Source: an uncultured Methanosarcinales archaeon (lineage in GTDB: Archaea; Nanobdellota; Nanobdellia; Woesearchaeales; GW2011-AR4). From it: 47,871 bases of DNA. Location: contig CAZSIU010000003.1 of assembly GCA_964607225.1 (NCBI GenBank), forward strand, positions 1 through 47,871, given 5' to 3'. Both the position numbers and the translations under genes were made by a program. The notes beneath the pieces are model-generated. The model saw only the letters and a program-made list of their open reading frames with translations, ran no database searches and had not been told where the DNA came from. This document shows, piece by piece, positions 988-29,900 of this stretch (the first letter of the stretch is position 1; the number at the start of each line of letters is the position of its first letter).

Positions 988-1086
988 TTATTTTGTTGGT
1001 AGACAAATATCATCAACAATATTTAGCTTCTTATACGTAAAAAATAGAAAGGTTTATATATAACTTACTTACATAGTAAGACAAAT

Positions 1087-1173: not shown

Positions 1174-1237
1174 ACCATCCCTAAAATGTCCTCCAACAAA
1201 ATTTCATTTTCAATTTTAACTAGATAAAGGGATATAT

Positions 1238-2395: not shown

Positions 2396-2566
2396 ATACC
2401 AACTAAAGCTCAGCCAGTATATAAAACTTGCGCGCCTATCAGAGCTCAAAGAAGTATTCAGAAAAACCCGCTAATGACAAGCGCTCAAGGCACTGTATAA
2501 TTAGCAGATATGGGAGTATTAGGTTTGACCAATATTTAAATTTTTCGCTTGTAAAAGAGGTATAAA

Positions 2567-5773: not shown

Positions 5774-5842
5774 CATGCGAGTGAGCGGAGGAATGCGAAA
5801 GCTCGCTTTCGCTCGCTTAACTACCTGAACTCGCTCACATGT
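5773..5842. repeat. REP/MITE-like nested palindrome (ATGCGAGTGAGC...CTCGCTCACA family)
   Basis: Related to 1795-1830 and 17540-17579; the 27-bp internal part 5793-5819 is the exact reverse complement of 36229-36255. Confidence 0.7.
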
Positions 5843-5914
5843 ACCTGGGTGAGAAAATGAAAAAACAAGAAAAAGTATTTATACAACTTAAGTTGTATAT
5901 ATATACAACTAGAG

Positions 5915-6427
5915 GTGATAAATTTGATATCAAAAAACAGTAAGAGACTGAATAAGGAATTTAACTGGTGCTCAAGTAAAAATACCTTTGTTAAAGTTGG
6001 CAAAGAGAGTTATATAGACTACATGGACGAAGCTTTATCAGATTTAAACTCTGCTGCTAAAGAAGAAAATGAAAAATGGGCTATAACAAAAGCTTACCAA
6101 GCGTTGTTCTTGGCTTGTAATGCTCTGCTTGTGAGAAAGCTTGGATTTTATTCTAAAGACCATGGCTGCGTAATAGTAGCATTGCTAAAGCATAGTATTG
6201 TCACAGAAGAGAAATTGGCAAGGATAAATGCTATGCTTGAGCAAAAGAAAAAACTATTTTCAGAGCTAAGACCAAGAATGAACTTCTTTGATGAAATATC
6301 AAATATCAGAATTACAAGAAACAAGTACCTCTATCTGCCACGAACTCAGCGCAAATTAAAGGTTTCTGCAAAAGGCGTTATTGAAGAAGTCAAAGAAATA
6401 ATCAGGATTTTAGGTGAGGAAGAATGA
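5915..6427 (+). CDS. HEPN-domain protein
   Basis: W-A-I-T-K-A-Y-Q-A helix, KDHG and RNKYLY (Rx4Y) motif; overlaps the downstream nucleotidyltransferase. Confidence 0.8.
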   Translation: MINLISKNSKRLNKEFNWCSSKNTFVKVGKESYIDYMDEALSDLNSAAKEENEKWAITKAYQALFLACNALLVRKLGFYSKDHGCVIVALLKHSIVTEEKLARINAMLEQKKKLFSELRPRMNFFDEISNIRITRNKYLYLPRTQRKLKVSAKGVIEEVKEIIRILGEEE

Positions 6428-7032
6428 TTAACGGATTATCGCCATTAACAAAAAATAAGCTTGAAATTTTAAAGTATATTTATGAGAAAAAGGAAACTCA
6501 TCTTTTAGATATTGCCAAAAATTTGAAAATTCATCCATTTTCTTTACAGAAAACTTTAAAGTCGTTAAAGAGTATTCTTGAAGAGAAAAAAACAGGCAGA
6601 ACAATTGTTTTGAAGATAGATAAAAACATAAAAGATTATTTTGAGCTAATTTACATAATAGAAGATTATAAGTTAAAAAATGGCAGCAGAATATTAAAAT
6701 TATTGGTTAAGAGCCTTAAGGAATTCTTTTCTAAAGACAAAAATGTACTGGCTTGTGTTTTGTTTGGAAGCTTTGCAAGAGGCTCTTTTACTGAAGAAAG
6801 CGACATTGATTTGCTATTTGTTGTCAAATCTAAAGTTAAACAGATAGAAGAGAGATGTTCTCAGCTTTCAACTTTGCTTGGCAGAGAAATAAATCCACTT
6901 GTTATGAATGAAAGAGAGTTTAGAATTGCTTTGCAAAGTAAAGAGCCAACTATTGCATCTTTACTAGAGCCTTCTCAAAGATTGCTGATTATTGGAAAAG
7001 AATACTTTTTGAGGAATACATATGGAATATGA
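6424..7032 (+). CDS. wHTH-fused minimal nucleotidyltransferase (MNT; HEPN-MNT pair)
   Basis: LFGSFARG...SDIDLLFV pol-beta NTase motif; N-terminal winged helix. Confidence 0.85.
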   Translation: MINGLSPLTKNKLEILKYIYEKKETHLLDIAKNLKIHPFSLQKTLKSLKSILEEKKTGRTIVLKIDKNIKDYFELIYIIEDYKLKNGSRILKLLVKSLKEFFSKDKNVLACVLFGSFARGSFTEESDIDLLFVVKSKVKQIEERCSQLSTLLGREINPLVMNEREFRIALQSKEPTIASLLEPSQRLLIIGKEYFLRNTYGI

Positions 7033-8161
7033 AAAAATCTGCAAGGGATGCGGAAGCGGTAATGTAATTAAAAAGGGTAAAAGGAAAAATAAGTATGGAG
7101 TAGTGCAGAAATATTTTTGCAATAATTGCAGCAAGTATTTTATATTAAAAAAATTAGAGAAAAAGGTATATTCTGCCAAAGTAATAATACAGGCTATTAG
7201 TTATTATAATTTGGGATATAGCTTGGATGAAAGTTCTAAATTAATTAATAAAAAGTTCAAGGTTAAAGTTTCATCAAGGGCTATTAGCAATTGGCTTAAT
7301 GAATTTGAGGAGGTATGCGGTTATTACAGGATAAGGGATAAAGCAAAGGGATTATTTAAGCCAAAAGATATTATTTTCAAGAAAATATTCAGGCATTTGC
7401 AATTATATAAATTTAGGTATCACAAAGCAAAGATTGAATTTTTTGTTAATAAATATTTCAATGGATTAAAAGATTATTCGGCTGATGTTTCTAGAAATTG
7501 TCCTAATGAGTTGTTTAAAGATAGCCTTAGAAGTTCCAATATCAAGTTAGATATTGATATTAACAAAATAAAGGTTTTCAAGAAAGAGAATTATGCTTGC
7601 AAGCTTGCTTCTCTTGCTTTGGAATCTGCCAGCAAGAATTCTGAAAGGCATGATAAATTGCAGGAGTTTATGCTTGCAAATGACACATGCACAATTGCTA
7701 CAGAAGTTCCTGTTTACTTGTTTTTGAATGAAATAAAACAATATGGAGTTTTTGATTTGTTTGAAAATTCAATTAAAAATAACACATTAAACAAAAAACC
7801 CAATAATGAAAAAATATTCAAAAATAATACTGCAATTACTGGGCATATAGATTTTGTACAGCTTAAGTTTGGCTCTGTTTATGTTTTGGATTACAAGCCA
7901 GATGCTGACAGAGTTTCTGCTGTTTCACAGCTTTTTGTTTATGCTTTGGCTTTATCTGTCAGGACTGGCATTTGGCTGCGCAACTTTAGGTGTGCTTGGT
8001 TTGATGAGAATGGCTACTATGAGTTTGTGCCATCTGATATTGTTCTGAGATTTTGTAATGTTCCTCAGCATAGAGTTAGGGAGTTTTTTGTCAGGAATAA
8101 GGAAAGGAGGTATTTCACAAGCATAGAGTTTCACGAAAAAAATGAGCAAGGTGTTGAATGA
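7022..8161 (+). CDS. Zn-ribbon/HTH + PD-(D/E)XK nuclease
   Basis: CKGC..CNNC IS1-InsA-like Zn ribbon, HTH, then TEVPV...GHIDFVQ...VLDYKP nuclease motifs. Confidence 0.75.
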   Translation: MEYEKICKGCGSGNVIKKGKRKNKYGVVQKYFCNNCSKYFILKKLEKKVYSAKVIIQAISYYNLGYSLDESSKLINKKFKVKVSSRAISNWLNEFEEVCGYYRIRDKAKGLFKPKDIIFKKIFRHLQLYKFRYHKAKIEFFVNKYFNGLKDYSADVSRNCPNELFKDSLRSSNIKLDIDINKIKVFKKENYACKLASLALESASKNSERHDKLQEFMLANDTCTIATEVPVYLFLNEIKQYGVFDLFENSIKNNTLNKKPNNEKIFKNNTAITGHIDFVQLKFGSVYVLDYKPDADRVSAVSQLFVYALALSVRTGIWLRNFRCAWFDENGYYEFVPSDIVLRFCNVPQHRVREFFVRNKERRYFTSIEFHEKNEQGVE

Positions 8162-11900: not shown

Positions 11901-14900
11901 GAGCAATTACTGGGCCTCCACATACAATCATAAGAAAAGATCTCACTGGATCTGATGGTGGCTACTTCTTTGATTTTAGTAATGAAGATAACATAAGATT
12001 TTCATTAGGGGGCTTAAATGGTGGAAACCCATTGGCATCAACTCAATCTCCAACAGTTGATGAATGGAATCATATTGCTGGAACTTATGATGGCTCTGCT
12101 ATGAGGATTTTCCTAAATGGCGTGCAGATTGCATCAGTAGCAACGTCAGGAAGCATTACAACAGGCCCCGACACTACAATAATTGGAAATGATGAAGGTT
12201 TAACTACACCGGTTAATGGCACCATAGACGAACTCTCAATCTGGAATGTTTCTTTAAGTGCAGATGAAATAAGAAAGCATTACGAAAAAGGAGTTTTGAA
12301 ATTAAACTTAAGCTATAGAACTTCTCAGGATAATGTAACATTCACAGCTTGGACTTCTGTCGGAAACAATACTTTAAGCGCAATAACTTCAAATGCTATA
12401 AACAGATACTTCCAATACAAAGCTGATTTCAACACAACAGATGCAAGGTACACTCCAATATTGAACAATGTAAGCATTAATTACACAATAAGAAGCAATT
12501 TGACAATATTTGATGATACTGAATTAAGAGTTGTTATAGCAAATGAGAGATTTAACTTTACTGCTAATTTTACTGATTTTGTCAAGCCAATAAATGGAAC
12601 AAACATAAATTGTACAATTAGCTTAAACTCAACTGGCTCTTATGCAGCTCCTATTAAAATGAATTTTACTTCTCAAAATAAATATTATTATTATGAAACT
12701 TCATTTAGCAATAAAACAATTGCTAGCTTTAATGTAACTTGTGATGGAACTGCTCTTGGACATCGATTAATGAGAACAATTGATGCATTTAATGTGACTG
12801 TTGCAAGGGTTTCAAACTTTAATGGAACAACAACAGATTACAATAATTTAGCTGCATTTGATAATATTAGTAATGCAATTCTTGAAATTGTTGGCTTTGG
12901 AAGAATTACTTGGCTTAATACAATAAATATAACAGGAGCTGATTTAAACAAAAATATTAACATAAGCCAAAACAATATTGGTTTATTCCCAGAAAACTTG
13001 CACAGAACTTTAAACACATCTGCCAATATAACAATTTACAATGTGCAAAGCTTAGTAAGCCCAAGAATCTTAAGAAATAATGTAACTTGTCCAGAATCAA
13101 TTTGCACTTTAATAAGCTATAACGGAACTGCAATAACGTTTAATGTTACTTCATTCAGCAATCATTCTGTAACAAACGGAACTTTAAATATAACTGTTAA
13201 TTTGAATAATACATTAGTTTCTGCAGGCACTCCAATTCTTGTTAGTGGAAAAGCAAACTTAAGCAATGGCACAAATGTAAGCAATAATTTAATAAGATTA
13301 TTTGTTGATGGTACAGAGCAAGGCATAGGCTTAAACTTCATTGATAACTCTGATGCTGATTTCAATAAAAGCACTAATTTAAATGCAACAAGAGTAAGAG
13401 GAACTGGAAGCAATGCAAATGTAACCTTAGCTGATTGGGATTATGATCCTGATGGAAATTTAAGCGTTAATTTAACTGCTTACTGGAAGTTTGATGAGCC
13501 GACTTCTTCTAATAACAGAAGTGATTACAAAGGGAATAATAATTTAGCAACAAATTCAACAATAACAAGAGTTGATGGTGTAAGAGAAGGGGCTGCTAAT
13601 TTTACACGAACAAGGCAACAATATTTGAATATCAGCAATAACACAGATTTAAGTGTAGGGGGAAATATAAGCTTTACAATTGCTGCTTGGGTGTTTTTAG
13701 ATAGTGAAGATGTAATGTATGCTGTTTCAAAGCACAATAATGTCGCAGGTGATATGGAATGGTTTTTAAGATTTGATGGTGGAACAGATACAGATAAATT
13801 TAGGTTCCAAGTTGTTGAAGGAGCTACAACTAACAAGGATGTTACATCAACAACTACTGTTACTAATGGCACATGGTATTTCTTAGTTGCATGGTATGAC
13901 GATGATGCAAATACAATTAATCTACAAGTAGATAATAGTGTGGTTGATACAACTACTGGAATAGGTGCTCTTAACTTTACTGGTTCACCTTTCAGGATTG
14001 GAGCCTTCAGTAGAACACCATCTAATTTCTGGGACGGCCGCATCGACGAAGTAGCATTCTGGAAAAGAATATTGACACAAAAAGAAAGAAATGTATTGTA
14101 CAACGGAACTAATGCAAGCAGTTATCCATATCTATCTGGCAACACTTTCAAGCCATACAAAGGCAATTTTACAAGCCAAATTTTTGATGCTGGCAGAACA
14201 GTCAACTTCAGCTATATATCATGGTATCAAGGCGCAGATGACAAAGGAGTTAGCGCAGGCTATCAGCAGGATTTGGGTGGATTGGTTAATGCTTCAACTG
14301 TGTTGTACATGAAGTTTAACAATGACACTTTGGAATCAGAGAGGCAATTGAATGTAACTCATAATATTTCTGCAGAAACGAATCTTGTTTTGTATATGCC
14401 GTTTGATAGTGCTAGTGCTAGGGAATTAACTGCAAATGCTTCTACTGTACTTTTAATGCACTTTAATAATGTAAGTCCTGAGAATTACAACATGTCAAAC
14501 ACAACACTAATTTATGATAATTCTAGCTATGGCAATAATGGAACATTATTTTTAAACACAAGCGCTGGTAACTTTACACCAAATGGTGGCAGATTTGGAG
14601 GTGCTTTTGTGTTTGACGGAAGGGACGATTTTATCAACATTACAAGTTTAAGAGGATTTTCAAATGGAACAAATGCATCTACAATAGAGGCATGGTTTAA
14701 AGCCGATGGTTTCCCGGATGGTAGGACTACAATAGCTGGTTATGGACAAGATAGCACTAATTCACAAAGGTCATTTTACCTTGGTATTGGAACATCTGGC
14801 ACAGATCGTGTACTAAAAATTAGGACTAATGGAGATGATACTGGTGGAAATACAATAGTAAGCACAAACACATGGTATCATGCTGCGGTTGTTGATGATG

Positions 14901-17900
14901 GAACAAACATGAAGTTATATTTAAACGGAATCTTAGATGCAAGTGTTGCAAGAGTTGGAAGTGGAAAACTAGCAGAAGAAGCTTTTATAGGAAGAATTGA
15001 CCCTGGAATGGGAGAAGCTTTCTTCAACGGCACAATAGATGAAGTTGCTATTTGGAATGTCTCGTTGTCTTCAGCAATAATTGCACAGCATTCAGGTTAT
15101 GGAATTGACAGGAGCATTTATGGGAATAATGCGACTTTGATGTTTAATACAACTGTTAATCAAAGCGGTAAATTTGGAGAGGCTATGCAGTTTGGTGGAA
15201 ATGGTTTCGTTAATGTTACTCAAAGCAGTAATTGGAATTTTAGTACTAGAGATTATGCAATTGAATTTTGGGTTAAATTTAGAGGATTTGTTAATAATGT
15301 GATAATGGTAGACCTTGGAGGAGATACTAATATAGAAACCAGAGTTCAGTATGATAATGTAAATAAAAAATTTGTTGTTTATAGAGGAGGTGATTTAGTT
15401 GTTAATACAGACTGGACAGCTTCGACAGATACATGGTATCATGTTGCTGCTTCTGTAAGCAGTAATAATGTAAGAGGTTACATTGATGGATCGCAAATAG
15501 GAACAGGCAGTAACACCAGACCTGTAAACAACACACAAAACCTGATAATTGGTGCTTTTAGAAATGCAAATGGCAACTTTGTTAACGGCACAATGGACGA
15601 AGTCGCAATCTGGAACAAAACATTATCTTCTGATTTAATAGCACAGCACGCAGGCGCAAAGATTGTTGATTATTCCAATTATGGCAACAATGGAACAAGA
15701 AACTTCAATTCAACAAGCGATTTTGGAAGGAACTTCACTGATGGAAAGTTTTCAAAGGCATTGTTGTTTGATGGAAAGAATGACTGGATAAATGTTACAA
15801 ATGCTTCTGGATTAAATATAATAGGAAATTCTATAACAATGGAAGCATGGGTTTATCCCATAACAATGACCACTAATAAGGCTGGTGTTTTCAGAAAAAA
15901 TAGAGGTGGACCTGATGGTGGTTTCATCTTTGATATAGATACTGATGATGGACTCAGAATGGTTCTAAATGTATCAGGTACTCAAACATTACTAACAACT
16001 GCTGGTATTCCTCAAAATAATGTTTGGAGCCATGTTGCTGGAACTTATGATGGAACAACAATGAGGCTTTACCTAAATGGTGTACAGGTTGCTTCACAGG
16101 CATCAAGTGGCTCTATTGGTGTAAGTGATGAAAACTTAATAATAGGTAATGACCCAACTTTAGTTTCTCCATTCAACGGCACCATTGACGAAGTAGCAAT
16201 CTGGAATGTAAGCTTATCATCAGATGAAATCAGAAAACACTACGAAAAAGGAGTTTTAAAATTAAACTTAAGCTACAGGACAAGCAATGATTCAACTGCA
16301 TTTAGCCAATGGACTCCTGTGCCAAATAACACATTAAGCACAGTTGGGTTTAGCATTGCTGATGACAGCTTAATAGATGTTGTTGAGGGTGTTGTGGTTA
16401 GAAATGAAAAAATAAAAGAAAGCGGATTCCTCAACATGGCCGAGGAGTGTCGAAGTACAGATGAGAGAGGAACAAATAACTATTTAAATGTTTCGATTTT
16501 AAATTCTGATAAGTGCAAAGCCGCGGAAGCTCAACATGGCCGAGCGCCCAGTTCTCAACTGGGTGTACTGTCGAAGTACATGCGGGTTCAAAACTCTCAG
16601 CGTAGAGTTGAGAGTCCCGTCCGCGGCGCATTAAAAACTAACTCTGATAATTCTGAAAATGTTGTTGTGAAGAATGTTAATGAATCCGCTTTCTTTACAT
16701 TCTCGTCCAGCAGAAATTTAAGCTTCCTGGAGGGGAACTGTGACTTTGACATTATCTCTTCCTCTAGTGAGATCAGCAGCATAGTGCAAGGCTGCCTTGA
16801 CATGCTCCTTTGTGAGAGGTGTTATGAAGCTTGTAATTATCTCTTCAACAGGCATGCCTGCTTCCAGCATCTCCAGAACCTGCCAGACCATGATTCTGGT
16901 GCCTTTGAAAGTGGGCTTGCCATGGCAGATTTCGCTGTCCGCAACGATGTATTTGTTGATTTCGATTCTCATGATGTTGATGAGGGTAAAGGGCTATTTA
17001 AAGGTATCGAAAATCAAAGATTTTCGGGACTCCCGAAAATGCAAAGCATTTTCGATAGTATCGGAAATCAGGAAATAATCCCAATTGATGAATTCAAGAA
17101 AATCTGCCCAACACTTGACTGCAATGTAGTTGATTACATAACAGCAAAGAAGAAGATAAAAGACATTAAAGAAGGAGACATTGTTTTATCTTTGGATGAA
17201 AACTCTGGGAAATTAAAGCCTGCAAAAGTCAATGCCTTGCTTGACCATGGTATAAAACCAATATTTGAATTAAAAACAATTTCTGGCAGAGCAATAAACA
17301 CAACTGCTGAGCATCCGTATTTAGTAAAATTATATGATAAAGCTTTATGTGATAAATATGCAAATACTTTCTGGAATAAAATAAATGAAAAAGAAGAAAA
17401 CGGGTTCCATAGCCAAGCTATTGCACCCAACCAAGATCTGATTCCTTCGCGAACAAATACTATAAAACAAAACCTATTTAAATATCTTTCGGTTGAAAAT
17501 GAAGGGACGAAGCTGGGGTCGCATAGCCTGGCCAGTCGAATGCGAGTGAGCTCGTTCAAAAGCGAACTCGCTCACAACTCACTGTCAGACCGAGGATCTG
17601 ATTTCCTTCGCGGATCCGCGGGTTCAAATTCTCTCAGCAATGAGATGAATCTCCCGCCAGATGCATGCGAGTCGCTCGCATGCTCGCGACATCTACCAGC
17701 GTCAAAAATTAGTTCTGAAAATGAATTTGAGCAAAATGGCTATTGCACAAGATGGGTTGAGGCTTCAGAATTAAATGAAGGCATGGAGATTGCTGCGCCT
17801 AGGATAGAAAATGATGTTAATCAAAAAGAAAAATACAATAACAATGGTGTTTCCTTTAATGTTCCTGTTTTAGGGTCTACACTAAAACCAAGAGATTCCA

Positions 17901-20900
17901 ATACCACAACTCCGATTAATACCTTATCTATGATTTCTGATATTAAGACTCGAGTTACATCTTCTTTACCTTTGATTTTTATACGAGCTTCACCTTCGTT
18001 TAATTTAATTATACCTCCGCCTGATTCTACTTCTCTTTCAGCTAAAGCTTTAATTTCAAGTCTATCTGCTAATTCTTTTGGCAGTACTGTTAAAGTTGCG
18101 CCTGTGTCAACTAAAGCTTTGACCTTTTCAGAGTGCTTCCTTTCTAAATCAAATATTTCCGCTTCAACCCATGAATGTCCCATAAACACAAGTAACAATA
18201 ATGATATATTTAAAGATATTGTTTTTGAAAAAATTGCCTCAATTAATGCTTTTGACAAGCAGCACGTATATGACTTAAGCATTGAAGGAACAAAAAACTT
18301 CATTGCAAATGACATTATCGCTCATAATACTGCAAGATACTTCCAGTACAAAGCTGATTTCAACACAACAGACGCAAAATATTCACCGATATTGAATAAT
18401 GTAACAATTAACTATTCTGGAATATTCACTGATGCTTTTGGAAGGTATAACTTTACTATAACTGCAGGCTCAACAGCCAAAACCTATGAAGTCAAGGCAA
18501 ATACAACATTTGAAGGCTTAAATGGACAGCAAAATAATACGTTTAGGGTTACTGCAATTCCTGTAATTAACAGAAACTTTACAATTCCAACATTCCCAAG
18601 ATTTGGACAAAATGTCACTTTTGTTGTTAATGTAACAGATGCGGACAACAATATATTGTATATCAACTTCACCTTGAAGCCAGCAAATGGAAGCATAATT
18701 AACTTAACTAATGGAACAAGAGTTGGAGATTTGCACAATGTTAGCTTTAATTTAACTAACTATGGAACTTGGTTCTGGAACATAAGTTTGACAGATGCAG
18801 ATGGCTTTATTGTAAATATGACAGGAACTGGAGAGATAATTTTGATGCAGATAACTGTTAATCTGAATGCAACTTTAGTTCCTGCCTCATCTCCTATTGC
18901 TGTAAGTGGGCATATTAATTTATCTAATGGAAGCAATGTGAGCAATAATGTAATTAGTATTTTTGTAGATGGAACAGAGCAAATATCACTACATAACTTT
19001 ACTGATGATACTGATACAGATTTCAACGCTGGAACGTTCATTAATGTTTCAGTGCAAGGAACTGGAACTCTTGCTAATTTGACATTAAACAAGAATGAAA
19101 GCGGTGCCTATCCAAATATGACAGGAAACTTCACATCTCAGACATTCAATGCTGGCGGTGTGGCCAATTGGAGCTATATAAGCTGGACAGATGTTGCAAA
19201 CAACAAATATGGGCAAGATTTAGGCGATTCAATAAATGCTTCTATGGTTTTGTATATGAAGTTTAATAATGATACTTTGGAATCTGAGAGGCAGTTGAAT
19301 GTAACTCATAACATTTCTGCTGAAACTAATCTTGTTTTGTATATGCCGTTTGACAGCGCTGCTGCAAGAGAATTAACGCAGAATGCAAGCACAATTTTAT
19401 TATTACATTTCAACAACAGGAGCGATTGGGGTGAAAACAACACTTTCTTTGTTGACAATAGCACTTATAAAAATAATGGAAATTGCACTGGAACAGGCTG
19501 TCCAGCAGTTAATACAACTAATTATAAGTTTGGAGGAGCTGCTTTGACTTTTGATGGCATTAATGATTATGTTAATATTAGCGATAAAGACAGCTTGGAT
19601 GCTGTTTCTGCCTTTAACGGAACAACTGTTGAAGCGTGGGTTTATGTGGCTGGAAGCCCAACTGCAACACACCAAGTTGTGTATAAGAGTAATGCTTATT
19701 TCCTTTCGGTATTATCAGATGATACAGTAAGATTCTTAGTATATGAAGAGCCAGCTGGCAATGGTATATTTGATGCAACAACTACTACAACTATAAACAG
19801 AAATGAATGGCATCACCTTGCAGGAACATTTGATGGCTCTAATGGTAAAGTGTATATTGATGGGGCATTAGCAATAACAGATTCTGTAGACGCTGGAGAA
19901 AGGGTATATCAAAGCAATACATTCTCATTAATGATAGGTTCTGCTAATACCCTTGATGCTTTCTTCAACGGCACAATTGATGAAGTAGCAATATGGAATT
20001 TAAGCTTAAGCTCTGGAGATATTGCAAAACATTCAGGTTATGGAATTGACAGGAGCATTTACGGGAATAATGCGACAGTAATAAATGGAACAACTGTAAA
20101 CTTTACTAGTTTCAAATTTGGTGAAGCCATGACATTCGGCACAGACAATGATTTTGTCAGGATTAAAAACAATTCACTTATAACATTTGGAAATGGGGTG
20201 ACAGATAAGCCTTTCTCAATAGAAGCTTGGGTTAATTATAATCCCTCTACTGCTAGACTTGGTTGTGCAATAGCAGCAAAATCCAGCGAAGGAGGAGAGC
20301 ACGAGTATATTCTTAATAAAGATGGCGATGACAGATTGTTTTTAATCCTATATAACCGTACAGGCAATAGTGCCATCAGACGCATAGCAAATCACAATCT
20401 CACTTCATTATTAGGCAATTGGATTCATGTAGTATCAACATATGATGGAAGCAGCAGCGATACAGGAATAAAACTATATCTAAATGGTGTGCAGCTGTCC
20501 ACAACTAGTGCTAGTACAGCACCATATGTTGCCATGACTGGCAGCAGCGACTTACTGATTGGTAGATGGAGACCAGATTCCTGTAATGTCACAATAGATG
20601 AGTTTGCCATTTGGAATACTACTTTAACCCCAGACAAAATCTCAGAACACGCAGGCGCAAAAATTGTTGATTACTCGCAATACGGCAACAATGGAACAAG
20701 AAACTTTAATTCAACCTCTGACTTTGGAAGGAACTTTACAACAAATGCTAAATTTGGAAAGGCTTTGGTGTTTGATGGGGTTAATGATTATGTGAATGTT
20801 ACTGATTTACCCTCAATGAACGCTTTAACTCTTGAAGTATGGATTAATCCTAGCGATGTTTCAACTAATAATGTTATACTCGGTCATAATTTAGCTGGCA

Positions 20901-23900
20901 ACAATAATGGAGATGTGAATTTTATAGTTAAAACAGACGGGAAACTATATTTCCTTTTGAGTGACGGAACTTCAGAAACAGAAATTAATACAAACACAAT
21001 ATTAAATACAAATACATGGTATTATACTGCTGCAACTTATTCTGGCTCAACAATGACGATTTATCTTAATGGTCTAGCCGAAGTTACAGGCACAATTAGC
21101 AATGCAAATCCTTTTGCTTTTTCTGGTAATCCAAATGTAGGAGGAGATATAGATGGTAAATCAAACTTCTTCAACGGCACCATTGACGAACTCTCAATCT
21201 GGAACGTTTCTATTGAGTCAAGCTTAATTGCACAGCACGCCCAAAGAGGCTTAACAAATCTAAGCATTTATTACTCTGCTTCAAATGACTCAACAACATG
21301 GTCAGATTGGACAAGGGCAACGAATAATACTTTGACAGCAGTTGGATTTTCAATTGCAGATGACAGCTTGGTTGATGTTGTGGATTATGTTGTTGTTAGA
21401 AATGATGTAATTAATGATAATTATTCAACATCAAACAATCTTTTAATGTCGTCAGTTGATAATATATCAATTTCAGATTGTTCTTTGAACCTTTTTTCAT
21501 TGGACCAAATAGCGCAGTCAGAGGCTAATGCCAATGCAAAATATGGCATATCCTTGGAATGCCCAGCCAATAACTTCAAAGCTTTGGATTCAAACTTCTT
21601 AAATTCGGATCTGGGAACAACATCAGTTATTTCAGACAATAAAGCAAATGATATTATAAACTCTAAACCGCCTATGCCGCAAAACTTGCAGATTCTTTGT
21701 TTAAGCTTATATAATTCATCCAGCGCAAAATCAGGAACAATCAATTTAGCTCCTTTAAGATACGCAGATTTAAGCAAATTCCTTGTAAAAGATTCAGGCT
21801 TAAAAAATGAGAATAAAACACTGGCATCAACAACAATCAATCTCATCTGCAATGCTCCAAATTATGGCATGTATCTTTTAGCCAAGTTGTCTCTATATTC
21901 TTCCACAAGTTCTGAGAAGTTATCATCAGTAAGCTTGCTTTTCTTTAATATATCATCAACTGCCTTAAACAAGAGCAATATTTTAAGTTTCTCCTCTACA
22001 GCGCTCCTTAATAATGATTTAGTAGCGGACTTATTAAGCTCGTCCCCAATAATTTCATTAAATCTATCAGGAATTTCAATCCTTAATTCAGCCATTTTAA
22101 TATCACCTAAAGAAACCAATGAAAATGCATATTTAAAGGTTGTGGTTAATAGTAAGGATTTAAAAGAAAATAATGAAAAAGAAGAAAATCAGGCACGTAG
22201 CTTGGATAAAACTTCTGTTTGGCGAACGGAGATTTTAAACGAATTCTTTGTGGATTCGGAAACTACCAAAACTCACACTGTAAGTAGCAATAAACAAGAC
22301 AAATATAAAAATCTTTCGGTTTTAGATTCAGACTATTCAATAATCCCAATTGATGAATTCAAGCAAATTTGCCCAAGCATTGATTGCGGTGTTGTTGATT
22401 ACATAACAACAAAGAAAAAAATCAAGGATGTTAAAGAAGATGATTATGTATTAAGCTTGGATGAGAAAACTGGAAAAATAGTTCCAGCAAAAGTCAATGC
22501 CTTGCTTGACCATGGTATAAAACCAATATTTGAATTAAAAACAATTTCTGGCAGAGCAATAAACACAACTGCTGAGCATCCGTATTTAGTAAAATTATAT
22601 GATAAAGCTTTATGTGATAAATATGCAAATACTTTCTGGAATAGAAACACATTAACGGATATAAAATCAACAATAACGACTTCTGAAAGTATCAAAAATA
22701 ATGAATTTGATGAAAAAGACTATTGCACAAGATGGGTTGAAGTAAGCGAATTAAAAAAAGAGATGGAAATAGCTGTACCTTATTATAAAACAGGCGCTGT
22801 TAAATGGGAGAAGATTGCTTTTATAACTACTTTAGACGAGCAGCATGTCTATGATTTAGCGATTGAAGGCACTCAAAACTTCATTGCAAATGATATAATT
22901 GCGCATAACACTGCAAGATACTTCAGATACCTAGCAAAATTCAACACAAGCAATTCTAATTTAAGCCCAATATTAAATGATGTAACAATTAATTACACAG
23001 GCATATTCACAGATAACTTTGGAAATTACAACTATACATTTAATGCTCCAACTACTGCAACAACTTACACTGTTAAGGTTAATGCAACAAGCAACAACAT
23101 TCCAGGAGAAGCTTTAACTACATTTAGAGTAACTGCAATTCCTGTAATTAACACAAACTTTACAATTCCAACATTCCCAATGTTTAACAGAGATGTAACT
23201 ATTGTTGCAAATGTAACTGATGCAGACAATACAATTGTTTATGTTAACTTTACTTTATATGCTCCAAATGGAAGCATAATTAACTTAACAAATAGCTCAA
23301 GAGTTGGTGACTTGCATAATGCAAGCTTTAATCTAACAAGCTATGGAACTTGGAGATGGAATATTACTGTATTTGACAGTGATGGATTTTTGGTTAATTC
23401 AAGTTCAACAGGAGAAATAATTTTAATGCAGATAACAGAAAACTTCAATGTAACAGCAACTGAAGCTAATGCATCCATCTCTGTTTCTGGGCATGTTAAT
23501 TTAAGCAATGGGACAAATGTAAGTGATTCTTTAATTAGTATTTTCTTTAATGAGGTTTTGATGGGAATAAATAACTTGACACCTGTTGGAAATTATAAGC
23601 AGAAGCAGTTTGTTGATGATAGTGATAGTGATTTCTTGAAAGGAAATTTAAGCATTAATTCAAGGGTTGTTGGAACTGGTGCTGGTGCGAATGTTACAAT
23701 AAACATAAGCTCATTGCAAAACCAAACTCAAAACATACAGCAAAGAGGCATTACTGTAAACGCTTCAACTATTTTATATCTAAGATTTGAAGAGGGGACT
23801 GGGCAGTATGCGAATGACAGCTCTCAATATGGAAATAATGGAACATTTGGAGCAACAACTGCATCTGCAAGCGATGATCCTGTATGGAATTCAAGTGCTA

Positions 23901-26900
23901 AATTTGGAAGTTTTGGAGTGAGTTTCAATACAAATGATTTTGTGAATATTAGTGATAGCAATAGTTTGGATGTCGTAGGCAATTTGAGTATCGAAGCTTG
24001 GATTAAACCAAATTCACTTAGTGCTTCTGGTAGAGCGATGCTAGTCGATAAGGCAGATTACCCAACTGCTAATGATGTTGGTTACACAATATTTTTGGAT
24101 CCTAGTGGCTCTAATTTAATTATTAATGGATTTATTGCTAACTCTGGCGGTTCTTGTCAAATAACTGGAACACAAGCTTTTACTTCAAATGAATGGCATC
24201 ATGTAGCATTTACCTATGATGGTGTAAGAGGCAGAACTTATGTTGATGGACTTACTGACACTGATTCCGCATGTACACAAAGTCCAGCAGCAAATGCTGT
24301 GCATTTAACTGTTGGTATGACTAGTGATGCTAGGAATTTCTACAACGGCACAATAGATGAAGTAGGGATATGGAATATAAGTCTTGATAATGCAACAATC
24401 TTACAACACTACCAACTCGGCTGGGGTTACTTTAATACTTCAAACTTCACAAGCCAAGTCTTTGATGCAAATGCAGTTGTGAACTGGAGCTATATTTCAT
24501 GGTATCAAGGCGCTGATGACAAGGGAATAAGCAATTTATATCAGCAGGATTTGAGCAATGTGATTAATGCTTCAACTGTTCTTTACATGAAGTTCAACAA
24601 TGACACTTTAGAATCAGAGAGGCAGTTGAATGCAACTCATAATATTTCTGCTGAAACAAATCTTGTTTTGTACATGCCGTTTGATTCTGCTAATGCTAGA
24701 GAATTGAAAGAAAATGGAAGCACTGTTTTATTGATGCATTTCAATAATGATACAGGAACTGGGGAGAATGCAAGTTTGTTTTTGAGCAACGCTACATTTA
24801 GTAATGTTACAAATGGAACTTGCAATCTTGCCTCAGGTTTCTGTCCAGTATTCAATAAGTCAAATGCAAGATTAGGAGCAGCTGCTTTAGAGTTTGATGG
24901 AGTGGATGATGTGGTTAATACAACATTCAAACCGAAAAACATGTTAGGAACAAATAAATCATTTAGCATATCCTTATGGACTTTCCTTAAGAGTGCTAAG
25001 AATCAAAACTTTATACATACACCTGTAGGAGATGGAGGAGATAGATTTTATTTTATAGTAGATACTGGTACATACATTATTGGATTAGGAAGTCAATTTA
25101 AAGATACTGGCATAGTGCCAGTAACAGGCTTCTGGCAACATTTGGTTGTCACTTGGAATGGAAGCAGCTCTCTTAAGCTATATGTTGATGGTGCTCTAAG
25201 AAAAGAAGAGTCTTATACTGGAGACGGGCAGCCTGCAAATGGTAATATGGTAATAGGTGCTAGTGCTAGCGATGGTTCTCTTGTAATAAACGGCACCATA
25301 GACGAAGTCGCAATCTGGAACATTTCGCTTTCATCAGGAGACATAGCAAAACATTCTGGTTATGGAATTGACAGGAGCATTTATGGGAATAATGCAACAT
25401 TGATGAATGGAACTATTGTAAACCAAAGCGGTAAGTTTTTTGAGGCAATGCAGTTTGATGGAAAAGGAGATTTTGTTAATTTATCAAATGATAGTGATTT
25501 TAATTTTGGAACAGGAGAGTTTGCAGTTGAATTTTGGATGAAAACAACTGATACTTCTGATAATTCTTTGATTGATAAATCTATTTCTGAATCTCCTTTC
25601 AGTGGATGGTATTTCTACTTTAGGGGTGCAGGTGACATTGATTTTTTCGCAAACAATGATGCCAATACTCTGGATGGAAAAATTAAAACAAATGATGGTA
25701 ACTGGCATCATATAACTGCAACAAGAAGGGGTACTACTAGTTATTTATATGTTGATGCTGTATTAGATGTAAGTGCAGCTCATTCTTCAAATGATAATAC
25801 TGCCGCGGCTCTATTAATAGGTACACAACGTAGCTCTGCTCTTTTCTTCAACGGCACAATGGACGAAGTAGCAATCTGGAACAAATCCTTATCTTCTGAT
25901 TTAATAGCACAGCACGCAGGCGCAAAAATAATTGATTATTCGCAATACGGCAATAATGGAACGAGGAATTTCAATTCATCTTCAGACTTTGGAAGGAATT
26001 TCACAGACGGAAAGTTTTCAAAGGCGTTGTTGTTTGATGCTATAAATGACTATGTTAATGTAAGTGATAGTAGTAGTTTAGATATTAATAATAGTCTTAC
26101 TATTGAAGCATGGGTTAAATTTGATGGACTACCTAATGATAATATGAATATAGTTTCAAAAGGTGATACAAGTATTGCCAATTATAATTATAATATTAGG
26201 ACCAACCTAGCACAATTAGATTATGCGTGGAAATGTTGTGGAACTACTGATAATGTATATAGAACAACAAGTAGTGTCCTTACAACAGGTGTATGGACAC
26301 ATATTGCTGCAACGCATGTAAGTGGGAACACACCAAAAATCTATATAAATGGAATTGAACAATCAGCTAGTATTACAAGTGGTGCTGCTACTACCCCTTT
26401 AAATTACAGCGCTGATCATCTATATATTGGTAGTAGAGGAAGGAATGAAGCTAGTGGTGCTTTCGTGAACGGCACCATTGACGAAGTAGCAATCTGGAAC
26501 ATTTCATTATCAGAATCAGAAATAAGAAAACATTATGAAAAAGGAGTTTTGAAGTTAAACTTAAGCTACAGAACAAGCAATGATAGCACTACATTTAGCC
26601 AATGGTATGGTGCGGGAAATAACACTTTAAGCACTGTTGGGTTGTGTGTTGCTGAAGACAGCTTGATAACATTGGCAAATGGTTCAAAGAAAAAGATAAA
26701 AGAAATTCAAGAAGGGGAGTATGTGCAATCTCTTGATGAAAAGACTGGTAAAATTGTTACAAATAAAGTAAATGCTTTGTTGGATATGGGCAATAAGACA
26801 GTATACCAATTAACAACGGAATCTGGAAGAGCTATAAACACGACAAAAGAGCATCCTTATTTGATTAGAATTTACAAAAATTCGAATTCATCGGGAAGAA

Positions 26901-29900
26901 GTTTAATAACTTTGCCCTCAATTTCTTCAGGAGAATGCTGCTTTAGCAATTTAGAGATTGAGCGTTTCTGTGCTTCCAAGTCTTTTGCACGGATTCTTAA
27001 TAGCCAAATTCCAAAGTGCTTAGAAGAAGCAAATTGCTCATCTGTAAAATGTTTGTCACGTGTAATCAGTAATCTTTGCTCTGATAAAGTCAGTTCAAAT
27101 ACTTCTCCATTCTCAATACCCTTAGGAGATAATTTAACGTCATGTCCTAATTTGGATAAGAAAGAAAATAAGCCTCTATGCACATTTTCATCAAATAAAA
27201 ACTTCATTTTAGGCAGGGACAAGTTCGAAACTTCTTTCTGTGAGTTGAGCAGCAAACTGCAAAGCTGCTTTGATGTGCTTTTTAATCAAGGAAGGGTATG
27301 CTTCAAGGATTTCTTTTGCAGTAGCTCCATCTTCGAGCATTTCCAGAACTATCGAAACCATGATTCTTGTACCTTTGAAAGTAGGCTGTCCATGGCAAAT
27401 ATTGGAATCAACAACGATATAATCATTAATTTCGATTCTCATGAAATAAATAATGATAGTTCAGTATTTAAATATTACGAAAATAATAGTGCTTCTCTGC
27501 TTGAGCTAAAAGACGAGCTCATAGAAATTAATAATGTTACAGCTAAATGGGTTAGAGTAAATCAGTTAAAAAAGGGAATGGAAATTGCTGTTCCTGATTA
27601 TGAATCAAATACAATAAAGTGGGAGAAAATAGTATCAATTAATGTTTTAGAGCCACAGCACGTCTATGACTTAAGCATTGAAGGTACTAAAAACTTCATT
27701 GCAAATGACATTATTGCGCACAATACAGGAAGATACTTCCAGTACAAAGCAGACTTCAATACAACTGATGCAAGATATTCTCCAATTCTAAATAATGTAA
27801 CAATTAACTATTCTGGCATATTTACAGATGCTTTTGGCAACTATAATTATACTTTTAGAGCTCCATCAAGTGGTTCTTATTCAATTAAAGTTAATGCAAC
27901 TTATGCAAATATTTCAGGAGAAGCATTTACAACATTGCAAATAGACACATCTGCTCCAAGGATTAACTTTACAAGGCCAACTCCTGCAAATAACTCAAGA
28001 GCAGTTGGAAATGCACAAAAAATAAACATAAGCATTACAGATAATGCTGTAAGCAGATGCACATTGCAAGTTCATAATGGAACCGACAATGCAACAAATT
28101 TCACAATGGAAATAAGAGGCTTAAACTGTAATGTAACTATAACAACACTTGATGGCTACAACTATACTTTAAAGGCTTATGCAACAGACACTGCTGGAAA
28201 TGAGAATTCAACTGAAAACCATACATTTAGAGAAAACACAAAACCAGAAATTCCAACTTTAAATGCTCCTGCAAACAACTCAAGATTATTAACAACAAGT
28301 GTTATATTAAATTACACTACAAATGACAATGATACAGACAATGTAAATTACATTGTTTACTTTGACACAAGCACAAACCCAACAACAATTGTATATAGAA
28401 GCACTTCAAAAACATTTGTTGTTTCAACAACAAGAGGCACAACTTACTTTTGGAAAGTGCAAGCAGATGATACTTTTGAGAACTCAAGCAACTCAACAAT
28501 AAGGCAATTCACTATCAACTCATTACCTCCAACACCATTAATAATAACCCCAAATTTAACAGGAATACAGCTTAGAGGCTCTCAAACTTATAATGTAAGC
28601 TGGGTTAATTCAACAAGCGATGCAGAAGGTGACCAAGTAAATATCAGCTTATATTATTCAACAGATTCTGGACTTACATATCCTAATTTTATAACTAGCA
28701 ATCTAACCAATAATGGCACATATGGTTGGCTAGTGCCAAGCATTGACAGCAACAAAGCAAGAATAAAAGCAATTGCAACTGATAGCTATGAAACTAGTGA
28801 AGATACTAGCGATAATGATTTCACTATTGACAGCACTGCTCCTACAATAACTCTAGACAATCCGCCAAATGGAAGCAGCTTTAATAATGGAACCTTCATT
28901 AACTTAACAATAACAGATAATTTAGTTGGTGGAATAAATGTAAGCTGGAACAACAATAGCTATGTTGGTGCTCCAAACAGGACTGACTTCAATGGAACTT
29001 ATGACATCAACACAACTGATTGGCAAGTTGGAGAGGTTAATATTAGCGTTTATGCAAATGACAGTGTAGGCAACTTAGCAACTGCTTACTTTAGGTTTAG
29101 TATAACAGATGTACAACCAGTTGTCACCTTCAATGCTCCATCTCCAAATCAAGTAATAAGAGCTACTTTTAGAGTAAATGTAAGCTCAACTTCACAACTT
29201 GATGATGCTGCTTTTGTTAATTTCACCTATGAAGGCGCAACACAAAACTTTACAATGACTCAAGCTGGAAATGATTATTTCTATGACTTTGATACAACAA
29301 CTGTTGCAGATAGGCAAAGAAGGCTTTCTGTTTATGGAAACAATTCTGCTGGAACTGTTGTAAGAGCTGATATATTTGCAACTATTGACAATACTGCACC
29401 TGCAATAAGGCTAGACTCTCCAGCCAATGACACTTGGAAGAATTCAAGCGTTACATTTGTTTATGTACCGAATGATGTAACAACAAGCATTGTAAATTGC
29501 TCATTGATAATTAATGGAACAATAAACAGAACCAATAGCAGTATTTCAGAAGGGATAGAGAACTTATTCAGCAATGTTGTCTTTGGAGACGGCATCTATA
29601 GATGGGATGTTAATTGCACCGACACAATTGGCAATAATGGCAGCAATGGAACTGCAAGGCTATTAAAAATTGATACAATAATACCAACAATTACGTTGCT
29701 AGACCCACCAAATGACACATCAATAAGAGGCAACAAAACAATTAACTTTTCTGTAACAGACTCTGGAGGAGCTGGTATTGCTAATCTAACTTGGAGCAGC
29801 AATTACTTATTGGACCAGACATCATTTATTGGGACTTATGGCATCAACACAAGTGAATTCCCAGAAGGAAAAACAAACATTACAATAGTTGCAAACGATT

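Follow-up and report, generated by a model that had tools for sequence, protein, structure and literature searches.

Giant surface-protein genes in DPANN archaea of the Woesearchaeota type contain one family of inteins, the loops of which have probably been colonised by transparent antisense cassettes. The permissive loops lie at three sites of the intein: site A follows block A, site B follows block B and site C follows MEIAVP. Most cassettes are type II toxin-antitoxin pairs (DUF433 with DUF5615, or a small antitoxin with PIN_2), and a protease gene and tRNA-like elements occur as well. Protein-coding cassettes always occupy the opposite strand and have their own TATA promoter, and they are ‘ambigrammatic’ in that the codon choice of the cargo leaves one antisense frame free of stops. 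Because of this frame, a ribosome would read the host gene straight across the cassette, producing a meaningless loop that protein splicing would then remove along with the intein, so that the host protein would be unharmed. Inteins would be a site where even junk peptide is removed, and perhaps the best hiding place for such cassettes. Any benefit to the host or to the intein can only be guessed at; it might be protection from deletion, either through toxin-antitoxin addiction or through a tRNA gene that is perhaps the sole copy. No precedent for antisense toxin-antitoxin genes inside inteins was found in the literature searched, where the arrangement appears to be undescribed.

The host gene, its inteins and their cargo

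In the window (the whole stretch of 47,871 nt analysed here), the host gene (8927-32461, plus strand) is a single ORF of 7,844 codons without internal stop that encodes a giant LamG-repeat surface protein, with eight Laminin_G_3 matches in the scanned part of the product (Pfam, E 2e-184). Three stretches of this ORF match Pfam Intein_splicing (region E 2.7e-62), and their plus-strand coordinates are exactly those that an earlier, sequence-only reading had assigned to three inteins. Intein 1 (16352-18328; 659 aa; GF/SIADDSL ... IIAHN/T) has Ser1, a TTAEH block B and three insertions; intein 2 (21350-22909; 520 aa; GF/SIADDSL ... AHN/T) has one insertion, at site A; and intein 3 (26645-27724; 360 aa; GL/CVAEDSL ... 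AHN/T) has Cys1 and one insertion, at site B. That reading had noted an absence of LAGLIDADG, and Pfam agrees, with no match to LAGLIDADG, HNH or other endonuclease families in the window region (E<=0.01). Intein 3 was modelled with confidence in its core (pLDDT 63-84) and without it at residues 78-287, and in the PDB the model matches DnaB mini-inteins best (prob 1.00). On the basis of class-1 motifs and a predicted Hint fold, all three elements are identified as class-1 inteins; intein 1, with an insertion in its first hairpin and three in total, may fail to splice. Inteins fill three of four paralogous sites within the gene, and the exteins, once rejoined, resemble its first repeat, which is itself intein-less.

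Intein 1 has the most complex cargo. Its site A insertion, in the hairpin after block A (16385-17131, plus strand; 249 host codons, 0 stops), contains a minus-strand DUF433 gene, a predicted antitoxin (16718-16972; Pfam E 3.4e-19), codon-aligned antisense to the host frame and preceded by a TATA box, TTTAAATA (16995-17002, minus strand), ending 22 nt before its ATG. The insertion also retains the N-terminal end of a DUF5615 toxin gene (16696-16752, minus strand; ..KLKFLLDENV). This remnant of about 20 codons was recognised by eye against the intact copy at 26872-27207 and is truncated by a 282-nt inverted-repeat element (16415-16696; 23-nt inverted repeats, 91% complementary). This element holds a tRNA-like gene (16520-16631, plus strand), and a dispersed palindromic repeat, R2 (17004-17059), with copies on 11 other contigs, lies further along the insertion. 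The site B insertion, after block B (17381-17713, plus strand), is GC-rich, strongly folding and tRNA-like, and includes a second dispersed repeat, R1 (17531-17587, plus strand), which on contig C86 interrupts the D loop of a tRNA gene as an intron. The site C insertion, after MEIAAP (17801-18214, plus strand; 138 host codons, 0 stops), carries a minus-strand gene for a retropepsin-like clan-AA aspartic protease (E 5e-9), listed as an ORF at 17821-18315, the first 44 codons of which are merely the antisense of the intein C-terminus. Read from an internal Met (17821-18183), the protease scores 57.1 bits against TIGR03698 (cut-off 57.35), and its TTTAAATA box (18207-18214, minus strand) ends 23 nt before the ATG. 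The sequence-only reading had also placed RNAs within the inteins, and this stands in part: 16520-16631 folds as a cloverleaf, and when the T loop is shortened by about 21 nt ARAGORN calls it tRNA-Glu(CTC), extra arm included, a verdict given for 54 of 3,512 deletion variants, but Rfam and ARAGORN found no RNA gene in the unaltered window.

The site A insertion of intein 2 (21383-22396, plus strand) holds a 750-nt cassette between copies of a direct repeat of ~31 nt at 21389 and 22139. Within it, on the minus strand, are a PIN_2 toxin gene (21421-21852; Pfam E 1.5e-13) and its small partner, a putative antitoxin (21862-22119, probable start ATG 22095) that belongs to no Pfam family and the homologues of which in relatives weakly resemble VapB. 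Its TTTAAATA box (22130-22137, minus strand) ends 34 nt before the ATG, just upstream of which is GGTGAT. The insertion of intein 3 (26882-27535, plus strand) spans 218 host codons without a stop, modelled at pLDDT 23-49, and carries minus-strand genes for a Mut7-C-like PIN toxin of family DUF5615 (26872-27255, probable start ATG 27207; Pfam E 2.1e-15) and for DUF433 (27209-27442; Pfam E 7e-22), the latter with a TTTAAATA box at 27465-27472 (minus strand) ending 22 nt before the ATG. The antisense units proposed from the letters alone (DUF433, aspartyl protease, antitoxin with PIN, DUF433 with DUF5615) are recovered by Pfam at E 5e-9 to 7e-22, save the antitoxin, and the minus-strand TATA box proposed for each unit is present as well. 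Across the window and its relatives a TATA box precedes 15 of 15 first cargo genes, and the spacer from box to ATG is 22 nt in all five DUF433 genes.

Recurrence in related genomes and outside inteins

Among 43 genomes in the genus, 11 have the intein family, and a survey of inteins for antisense ORFs and variable cargo, as the sequence-only reading had proposed, found the arrangement recurring in independently assembled relatives. Fourteen of 21 intein copies are complete and stop-free; all 14 match Intein_splicing, have invariant Ser/Cys1, TTxxHPY and HN/T, and list no endonuclease family (E<=0.001), and 12 of them contain family-assigned antisense genes. Five of the 21 copies are disrupted by a frameshift or by loss of block B or the N-terminus, and therefore the open frame is not always kept and its maintenance is not absolute; broken versions with the N and C halves of the intein in different frames are seen in relatives (L016-L019, L026). 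At 23 related loci all 74 cargo matches are antisense to the intein; the other 54 loci, mostly bacterial inteins of housekeeping genes, gave no cargo match. Related loci come from MAGs named as Candidatus Woesearchaeota and Nanoarchaeota, in keeping with the DPANN host guessed in the sequence-only reading. Members of the family reside in several different surface-protein genes, and the cargo families are matched by Pfam in relatives as well. The PIN pair occupies site A in intein 2 of the window, site B in L020 and L025 and site C in L013, L023 and L024, and DUF433/DUF5615 occurs at all three sites, in intein-less ORFs and in leaders. Cargo varies among inteins at an identical extein site, and the intein of L028 has no nuclease among its cargo. 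Cassettes can also occur in tandem, with repeated junctions spaced 789, 759, 681 and 807 nt apart, and at L082 the stop-free frame across 12 antisense genes exceeds 2,057 codons.

The sequence-only reading had treated the intein as a landing pad. Inteins are indeed a favoured site, though they do not cause the stop-free strand: cassettes also occur in intein-less ORFs and in 5' leaders of giant genes, and the genome of the window has a PIN cassette outside any intein (C37; 310 stop-free antisense codons). Among 29 DUF433 genes examined in the genus, 16 have an antisense frame open for at least 200 codons: five in inteins, five in giant-protein ORFs without a Pfam Hint, two within an unrelated ORF and four as an upstream ORF before a giant gene. 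For the 5.8-kb intein-free stretches of relatives, a distant or degenerate Hint domain could be missed, as only ~3 kb was viewed. Leader ORFs over cassettes comprise four of 226-246 codons and one of 186 (L035). Non-intein copies share their antisense phase with homologous intein cassettes. An open antisense frame is not a general trait of DUF433 genes: elsewhere in the phylum it reaches at least 200 codons in 5 of 25, and in none of 10 at locus GC <= 0.35. In a database search the host-frame junk peptide matched 151 representative proteins at E <= 1e-3, and 60 of 150 of these representatives are free-standing ORFs of 200-299 aa, three of the 60 with intein motifs. There is no transposase or integrase beside the cassettes. 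The direct repeats flanking leader sites are short (9-12 nt) and A-rich; the long ones (39-45 nt) could stem from unequal recombination instead of insertion.

These observations bear on the possibility that ordinary toxin-antitoxin modules landed in neutral inteins, with the open frame reflecting a survivor filter at that single site and addiction having replaced homing. The missing endonuclease families in all 14 complete inteins and the exclusively antisense, family-assigned cargo in 12 of them are what this would predict, and yet we consider it unlikely, because homologous stop-free cassettes exist outside inteins (C37, the leaders, five giant and two other ORFs), where an intein-only filter fails as an explanation, and because so few of the free-standing junk-peptide representatives have intein motifs. 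Since the cassettes are antisense with open frames outside inteins too, the stop-free strand is a property of the cassette, and transparency is either adaptive for the cassettes or the mark of a filter that all of them have passed.

The open host frame and selection on both strands

As had been claimed, the host frame is stop-free through the inserts, with 0 stops over 1,054 inserted codons, for which the two remaining sense frames have 65 and 128. Antisense frames of the genome's long ORFs contain 3.5-6.6 stops per 100 codons, and given this background ~28 stops are expected across the six cargo genes. When cargo codons were synonymously reshuffled, the product of the six zero-stop fractions was ~7e-8, and the codons proved biased towards stop avoidance in the host frame; a chance origin of the stop-free frame is excluded. 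The same pattern extends to the 14 complete inteins, which have 0 stops in 6,269 host-frame codons, compared with 448 and 715 for their other sense frames. In four of the six cargo genes of the window the third codon positions of the two strands fall together (offset 1), and this antisense phase is the one with the lowest stop density (3.5%).

The host frame may alternatively not be one protein, being expressed in pieces (as a split intein, a fractured gene or by C-terminal cleavage only), or the inserts may be cut from the RNA, for example by tRNA-splicing endonuclease acting on tRNA-intron-like repeats. The relatives with intein halves in different frames (L016-L019, L026) would fit, as would R1, the tRNA intron found within insertion B of intein 1, and passages of PMC2677866 describe fractured genes in which the two halves of a split intein enclose a free-standing gene. 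Expression in pieces or RNA removal is nevertheless improbable, as neither requires an open frame, yet stops are absent from those 6,269 codons and the 2,057 at L082 and are avoided in the codon bias of the cargo; R1, moreover, accounts for just 57 of 3,162 inserted nucleotides.

Selection appears to act on both strands. Median pN/pS is 0.24 in the Hint cores (91 pairs), and for DUF433 it is 0.11-0.58 in the cargo frame and 0.8-1.4 in the host frame at the same place, ratios which indicate that the Hint cores and the DUF433 cargo are both under purifying selection. Comparison of the window with L060 gave 13 synonymous and 8 non-synonymous codon changes in DUF433, and 27 and 9 in DUF5615, for which, as for PIN, cargo and host-frame selection are inseparable because third codon positions of both strands coincide; none of the 101 substitutions creates a host-frame stop. 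That the minus-strand genes exist by chance or are relics in decay, with the intein and host frame alone of importance, is very improbable. The truncated toxin gene in intein 1 (16696-16752) and the lack of a Pfam family for the PIN pair's antitoxin point that way, but the proposal is contradicted by the Pfam matches (E 5e-9 to 7e-22), by purifying selection on the DUF433 cargo frame and mostly synonymous changes in DUF5615, by promoter boxes conserved at fixed spacing and by intact genes in many genomes.

We give still less credence to the cargo nucleases (PIN, DUF5615, RelE-like) being trans-encoded homing nucleases for the intein: endonuclease-less inteins do fill three of four paralogous sites and several surface-protein genes, but different cargo occurs at an identical extein site, the L028 intein has no nuclease, and passages of PMC2701414 and PMC5499597 present these families as RNases of toxin-antitoxin systems or as predicted toxins. 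The assembly itself was checked against public-run contigs, of which those from two runs span extein, intein 2 and its cargo without difference; no RNA run contained the stretch. An assembly chimera or sequencing artefact in the repetitive 23-kb gene is exceedingly improbable, for although the window comes from a 170-contig MAG and public-run contigs are fragmentary over 16352-17884 (one with a variant at 17534-17617), identical contigs, from runs that belong to one study and may include the source sample, join extein, intein and cargo for inteins 2 and 3 and, for intein 1, cover its cargo-to-extein end, and 10 other genomes of the genus and further named MAGs have a like architecture.

Comparison with known systems

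The colonised inteins share with canonical inteins and mini-inteins an in-frame Hint domain bearing blocks A, B, F and G, tolerance of a large insertion behind block B, and (predicted here) removal by protein splicing. They differ in that the insert comprises independent opposite-strand genes instead of a sense-strand protein domain, its host-frame reading being structureless in the model (pLDDT 23-49), in having two further insertion sites, and in residing in variable surface proteins instead of conserved replication enzymes. In some group I introns, likewise, a homing-endonuclease gene lies on the antisense strand, so that these too are self-removing elements hosting a gene in opposite orientation. 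Their removal takes place at the RNA level, and therefore such a gene needs no open host frame.

Fractured genes, as described in passages of PMC2677866 (2009), also have, inside an intein coding region, a separate gene under control elements of its own. There, however, the intein and host gene are split into two ORFs and the guest is a homing endonuclease, whereas here the ORF is continuous and the guests are antisense toxin-antitoxin or other genes; those passages make no mention of opposite-strand genes. R1, R2 and the inverted-repeat element of intein 1 recall Rickettsia palindromic elements and intragenic MITEs, but the Rickettsia elements are ~150 bp and gene-less (PMC10969869), in contrast to cassettes of ~680-810 nt with whole operons on the other strand. 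A stop-free reverse-complement frame over real coding sequence is also found in ambigrammatic narnaviruses, where, according to portions of bioRxiv 10.1101/761890 and PMC8155312, it apparently encodes no functional protein; those are RNA virus genomes, whereas these are cellular DNA cassettes, the open strand of which would serve a host gene that reads through. Finally, the pairs resemble type II toxin-antitoxin modules such as DUF433 (COG2442) with PIN-like toxins and VapBC, as outlined in passages of PMC2701414 and PMC5499597, in being small and adjacent or overlapping, in having the antitoxin in the leading position and in sharing a promoter, but are nested antisense in another ORF that constrains their codon usage.

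The giant ORF, its inteins and their antisense cargo

The 47.9-kb window, one contig of a genome of 170 contigs and 1.06 Mb, holds a single open frame of 7,844 codons on the plus strand (8927-32461) that is made up of LamG-type repeats, with eight Laminin_G_3 stretches matched by Pfam in the part scanned. Three plus-strand elements within this ORF match the Pfam intein splicing domain: intein 1 (16352-18328) and intein 2 (21350-22909), both beginning GF/SIADDSL (the slash marks the intein border), and intein 3 (26645-27724), beginning GL/CVAEDSL; all three end IIAHN/T. Block A supplies an N-terminal Ser (inteins 1 and 2) or Cys (intein 3) nucleophile, with D5, S6 and L7 invariant in 14 copies of the family, block B reads NTTAEHPY or NTTKEHPY, with T66, T67, H70, P71 and Y72 invariant across the copies compared, and each window intein closes with His-Asn followed by a +1 Thr (H359 and N360 invariant in the 14 copies). 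Profile PF14890 is matched by 14/14 inteins and scores 80.7 bits on intein 3 against a cut-off of 35.8, and a Pfam scan of the window region and the 14 inteins found no endonuclease family on the host frame, that is, the reading frame of the giant ORF through the insertions. The paralogous place in the first LamG super-repeat is intein-less and reads ..NNTLSAITSNAINRYFQYKADF.., to which the predicted spliced product, ..NNTLSTVGF-TARYFQYKADF.., is close, so that the flanks would join to uninterrupted host sequence.

Alignment of the three inteins gives a common core of ~170 residues that is interrupted at three points. Inteins 1 and 2 have an insertion at site A, within the hairpin that follows block A; inteins 1 and 3 have one at site B, which follows block B; and intein 1 has another at site C, after MEIA(A/V)P. 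In the AF2 model of intein 3, residues 1-77 and 288-349 are confident (core pLDDT 63-84) and the insertion is not (pLDDT 23-49); its top Foldseek matches in the PDB are the DnaB mini-inteins 4o1r and 1mi8 (prob 1.00), with TM-scores that are low because of the 210-residue insert. A split intein or fractured gene was considered and rejected, the window ORF being continuous and the halves lying in separate ORFs only in some relatives. By their blocks, profile, modelled fold and joining flanks the three elements classify as class 1, Hint-fold inteins that are predicted to splice.

The insertions carry genes on the minus strand: DUF433 (16718-16972) and a retropepsin-like aspartic protease (17821-18315) in intein 1, PIN_2 (21421-21852) with a small partner upstream of it (21862-22119) in intein 2, and DUF5615 (26872-27255) with DUF433 (27209-27442) in intein 3. 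The sequence-only reading had described three inteins lacking LAGLIDADG over exactly this span (16352-27724) and had recognised the same genes antisense within them; this observation is confirmed, with Pfam matches for every gene except the antitoxin partner. For its first 44 codons the protease ORF is no more than the antisense of the intein C-terminus, and from an internal Met the protein scores 57.1 bits with the clan-AA protease model, whose cut-off is 57.35. An archaeal-type TATA box, TTTAAATA, precedes each cargo unit, as had been claimed, and the claimed spacing of 23 nt to the ATG holds for the protease, while the box ends 22 nt before the ATG of both DUF433 genes. For the antitoxin of the PIN pair it ends 34 nt before the ATG, which has GGTGAT immediately upstream.

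The layout of the pairs is that of type II toxin-antitoxin (TA) modules, DUF433/PIN-like or VapBC-like, a predicted activity here: DUF433 and DUF5615 overlap by 47 nt, antitoxin and PIN_2 are separated by 9 nt, and the same pairs recur in relatives. Two earlier accounts (PMC2701414, PMC5499597) describe DUF433 (COG2442) as a predicted antitoxin to toxins of the PIN family, and PIN domains of the Mut7-C-like kind as predicted toxins. NCBIfam assigns no name to the PIN, DUF433 and DUF5615 proteins, giving only VapB and YafQ matches below threshold. A remnant of a DUF5615 gene, its first ~20 codons (..KLKFLLDENV), also survives in intein 1 (16696-16752, minus strand), cut off by a 282-nt element with 23-nt inverted repeats at its ends; no inverted repeats bound the gene cassettes themselves.

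Four public DNA runs of one groundwater metagenome study, among which may be the source sample, have contigs over the region; no RNA run was listed for it. Identical contigs span extein, intein and cargo of intein 2 (21175-22516) in two runs, bridge extein, intein and cargo of intein 3 (26539-27675) in one run, and bridge cargo, intein end and extein at the end of intein 1 (17884-20059) in one run; coverage of 16352-17884 is fragmentary only. The nested arrangement is not an artefact, and it is not unique.

A stop-free frame over coding sequence on the other strand

The five insertions add 1,054 codons to the host frame with 0 stops, the other two sense frames having 65 and 128; over the 14 inteins, none of the 6,269 host codons is a stop, and the other frames have 448 and 715. 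Chance would have to supply this openness from a background in which antisense stops per 100 codons are 6.0, 3.5 and 6.6 by phase, and open 100-codon antisense windows number 11, 77 and 2 of ~1,590 (447 long ORFs of the window's genome). At these densities the six cargo genes together would be expected to hold ~28 stops. The codons of both DUF433 genes are in register with those of the host frame, so that the two genes must avoid TTA, CTA and TCA, in a genome where TTA supplies 36% of the codons for Leu and TCA 27% of those for Ser. The four other cargo genes lie in the phase in which third positions coincide, where, by derivation, host stops arise solely from cargo NNY-TAY or NNT-CAN. When synonymous codons are reshuffled, the share of trials in which the host frame stays open is, for the six cargo genes in turn, 1.4%, 18%, 20%, 54%, 10% and 0.25%, a product of ~7e-8. 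The cargo is thus ambigrammatic: opposite real coding sequence, its reverse complement has a frame free of stops to a degree that exceeds chance. Overlapping open frames of at least 75 codons, listed across the whole genome, came to 961 pairs, a set too unspecific for use.

Both strands bear marks of selection. Purifying selection on the catalytic blocks of the inteins is shown by their Hint cores (90 codons), which have a median pN/pS of 0.24 (range 0.10-0.38, 91 pairs). For DUF433, pN/pS is 0.11-0.58 in its own (cargo) frame and 0.8-1.4 in the host frame. Between the window and the related locus L060, which align without gaps over 749 nt at 86.5% identity, DUF433 has 13 synonymous and 8 non-synonymous codon changes in its own frame and 6 and 15 in the host frame, DUF5615 has 27 and 9, and the 101 substitutions create 0 host-frame stops. 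For PIN and DUF5615, pN/pS has no power to separate the strands because third codon positions coincide.

Cassettes within and outside inteins of related genomes

The intein family is present in 11/43 genomes of the genus, and among 16 other families of the order, one genome sampled each, there was a single weak match. The loci fetched contain 21 intein C-termini, belonging to 14 inteins that are complete, in frame and stop-free (three in the window, 11 in relatives), two cut by contig ends and five disrupted (L016 by a frameshift, L017 and L018 by loss of block B and a frameshift, L019 and L026 by loss of the N-terminal part and stops). L017 and L018 are two inteins of one gene in a 93%-complete, 8-contig genome and share the same block B loss and frameshift with the DUF433 cargo intact, a lesion that either gene conversion between the copies or shared pseudogenisation may have produced.

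Family-assigned antisense genes, for which the sequence-only reading had proposed a survey, occur in 12/14 complete inteins: a PIN_2 pair in six, DUF5615 with DUF433 in four, DUF433 and the protease in window intein 1, and a DUF2283 pair plus a RelE/YafQ-like pair in one. Of the remaining two, one has a 108-aa ORF without a family, and the other, in L028, has no protein gene and a sense-strand tRNA-Leu(CAG). A wider scan with one genome per species gave 79 loci, a set that may overlap the genus set, and cargo queries matched 23/79 of them with 74 matches, 74/74 antisense to the intein; 15 further rows were set aside in which the spurious N-terminus of the protease ORF matched the antisense of the intein C-terminus. 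The close loci are recorded under Candidatus Woesearchaeota and Nanoarchaeota MAGs. The other 54 loci gave no cargo match; most hold bacterial inteins that interrupt housekeeping genes, their C-exteins being of the type SIEQDA or CIYQEQ.

The largest array is in locus L082, which is open through all of its 2,412 codons (1-7236); the 2,057 codons before the intein C-terminus cover 12 antisense genes, and the intein, whose N-terminus lies beyond the locus, is longer than those 2,057 codons. Its cassettes stand in tandem, with 117-nt conserved junctions recurring at spacings of 789 and 759 nt, and a 39-nt intein segment encoding VSELKEGMEIAVP is triplicated at spacings of 681 and 807 nt. With an integron-type cassette array in view, the ORFs of the loci were inspected, and no integrase was noticed beside the 117-nt junctions or the ~31-nt repeats of intein 2.

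Inteins had been proposed as neutral landing pads for TA modules, and cargo does sit in stop-free inteins; the same cassettes, however, also lie outside them, so that this interpretation is partly supported and has to be broadened. On contig C37 of the window's own genome an antitoxin and PIN pair (4641-5570) lies outside any intein, immediately behind the start codon of a giant surface gene whose 5' end is duplicated over ~45 nt on the flanks of the cassette. The antisense frame of the pair is open over 310 codons and has ATGA start/stop overlaps with both neighbours. The PIN pair on contig C16 has 5, 4 and 6 antisense stops. DUF433 has 49 matching places in 24/43 genus genomes, and a genus survey that returned 30 loci placed 29 distinct genes, of which 16 have an antisense frame open over at least 200 codons, four over 120-199 codons and nine a shorter or closed one. 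Of the 16 open genes, five are in inteins, five in giant surface-protein ORFs without a Pfam Hint domain (L041, with a block-B remnant only, and L042, L043, L045 and L056 at one common site), two inside an ORF with a PD-(D/E)XK domain (L050, L051), and four form an upstream ORF, 226-246 codons long, immediately ahead of a giant surface gene (L030, L036, L038, L054). In these last four the upstream ORF opens with 6-12 nt copied from the start region of the giant gene, and in L030, L038 and L054 it ends a few nt from, or at most 14 nt past, the ATG of that gene. Outside the genus, 5/25 DUF433 genes (16 genomes) are open over at least 200 codons, and 0/10 at a locus GC of 0.35 or less. The cassettes are therefore not tied to inteins, the same families occurring at sites A, B and C and elsewhere. 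One of the five open genes outside the genus, in L162, comes from a different family of the order; its DUF433 protein is 94% identical to that of the window, and the gene runs antisense within an ORF exceeding 1,057 codons, a hint that the cassette or the intein has recently moved between families by horizontal transfer.

The junk peptide of intein 3, the host-frame translation of its insertion, has 151 matching representatives in the database at E <= 1e-3, of which 63 reach E <= 1e-10. Among the 150 matches listed, 60 are 200-299 aa long and 63 at least 300 aa, 20 of the latter with intein motifs; of eight long matches scanned, four have a weak or near-threshold Hint/intein match and four have none.

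A possible composite element, tRNA-like sequences and small repeats

The cassettes come with promoters of their own, lie antisense and, by their choice of codons, leave one antisense frame without stops. Host mRNA would then be translated through the cassette and splicing would remove the resulting loop; at intein-less sites the junk peptide may remain as a linker or act as a coupled upstream ORF. The archaeal termination factor acts on untranslated RNA, and the open frame may be needed against polarity on the downstream giant gene. Conceivably, TA addiction, or possibly a single-copy tRNA gene, shields the intein and its gene from deletion. We tentatively propose, giving it slightly less than an even chance, an ambigrammatic lineage of cassettes (TA pairs, perhaps tRNA genes) in translated DNA of DPANN archaea, whose antisense strand, selected to be stop-free, would allow them to nest inside ORFs, inteins and translated leaders while causing neither polarity nor truncation. 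Together with inteins that lack an endonuclease, such cassettes would form a composite selfish element, the intein hiding the cassette and the cassette making intein and giant gene hard to lose, and arrays would build up in a single intein, to at least 12 genes in L082.

The arrangement combines known kinds, namely intein, toxin-antitoxin module, in-frame selfish DNA and antiparallel overlap. Its closest precedents are endonuclease-bearing inteins, fractured genes (PMC2677866), in-frame Rickettsia palindromic elements (PMC10969869) and ambigrammatic narnaviruses, none of which unites an uninterrupted intein ORF with complete antisense operons as here. Genes encoded antisense within inteins had no description in the literature searched. 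To our knowledge inteins have been thought to carry homing endonucleases only, or nothing; those described here are containers for whole operons on the other strand, one stretch of DNA serving two reading directions under two kinds of selection. This suggests that selfish TA modules may persist in very compact genomes through translational transparency inside genes, and that inteins may be retained by means other than homing. The inteins are also a natural test of tolerance for unstructured insertion at three sites, of use for intein engineering, and a warning for annotation, as a long ORF labelled 'hypothetical' in a genome of this kind can be just the opposite strand of a TA cassette.

The GC content of 16001-17000 is 0.417 against ~0.33 around it, coinciding with a tRNA-like element and the DUF433 gene that avoids TTA, CTA and TCA. 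Rfam (15500-28500, E <= 1) returned nothing but one sub-threshold snoRNA match, ARAGORN called no tRNA on the window as it stands, and its relaxed calls were implausible only and were discarded. A partial second copy of the tRNA-like element (16430-16470; D arm and extra arm, no anticodon arm) lies ~90 nt upstream of the full one, and a putative second tRNA-like stretch lies at 17505-17700 in intein 1. L028 has a similar partial copy upstream of its tRNA-Leu(CAG), which is intact (1130-1215) on the sense strand inside the intein ORF. A 97%-identical counterpart (contig C25 of the related genome G015, 14542-14620) is again within an intein, and BLAST matched no second copy of this tRNA in either genome (99% complete for that of L028, 92% for the other).

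Two small repeats lie in frame in intein 1 and, with the 282-nt element, are candidates for in-frame elements of the MITE or RPE type. R1 (~55 nt; 17531-17587) is found on 23 contigs, and on contig C86 of the same genome (3955-4190) it occupies the D loop of what seems to be a tRNA gene with three introns (D, anticodon and T loops), which fits the very few ARAGORN tRNAs of this genome; R1 has the look of a mobile family of tRNA introns that can also enter an ORF without breaking its frame. R2 (17004-17059), a palindromic repeat of ~50 nt with core TTTTCGGGACTCCCGAAAA and copies on 11 other contigs, is placed between the DUF433 promoter and the intein core.
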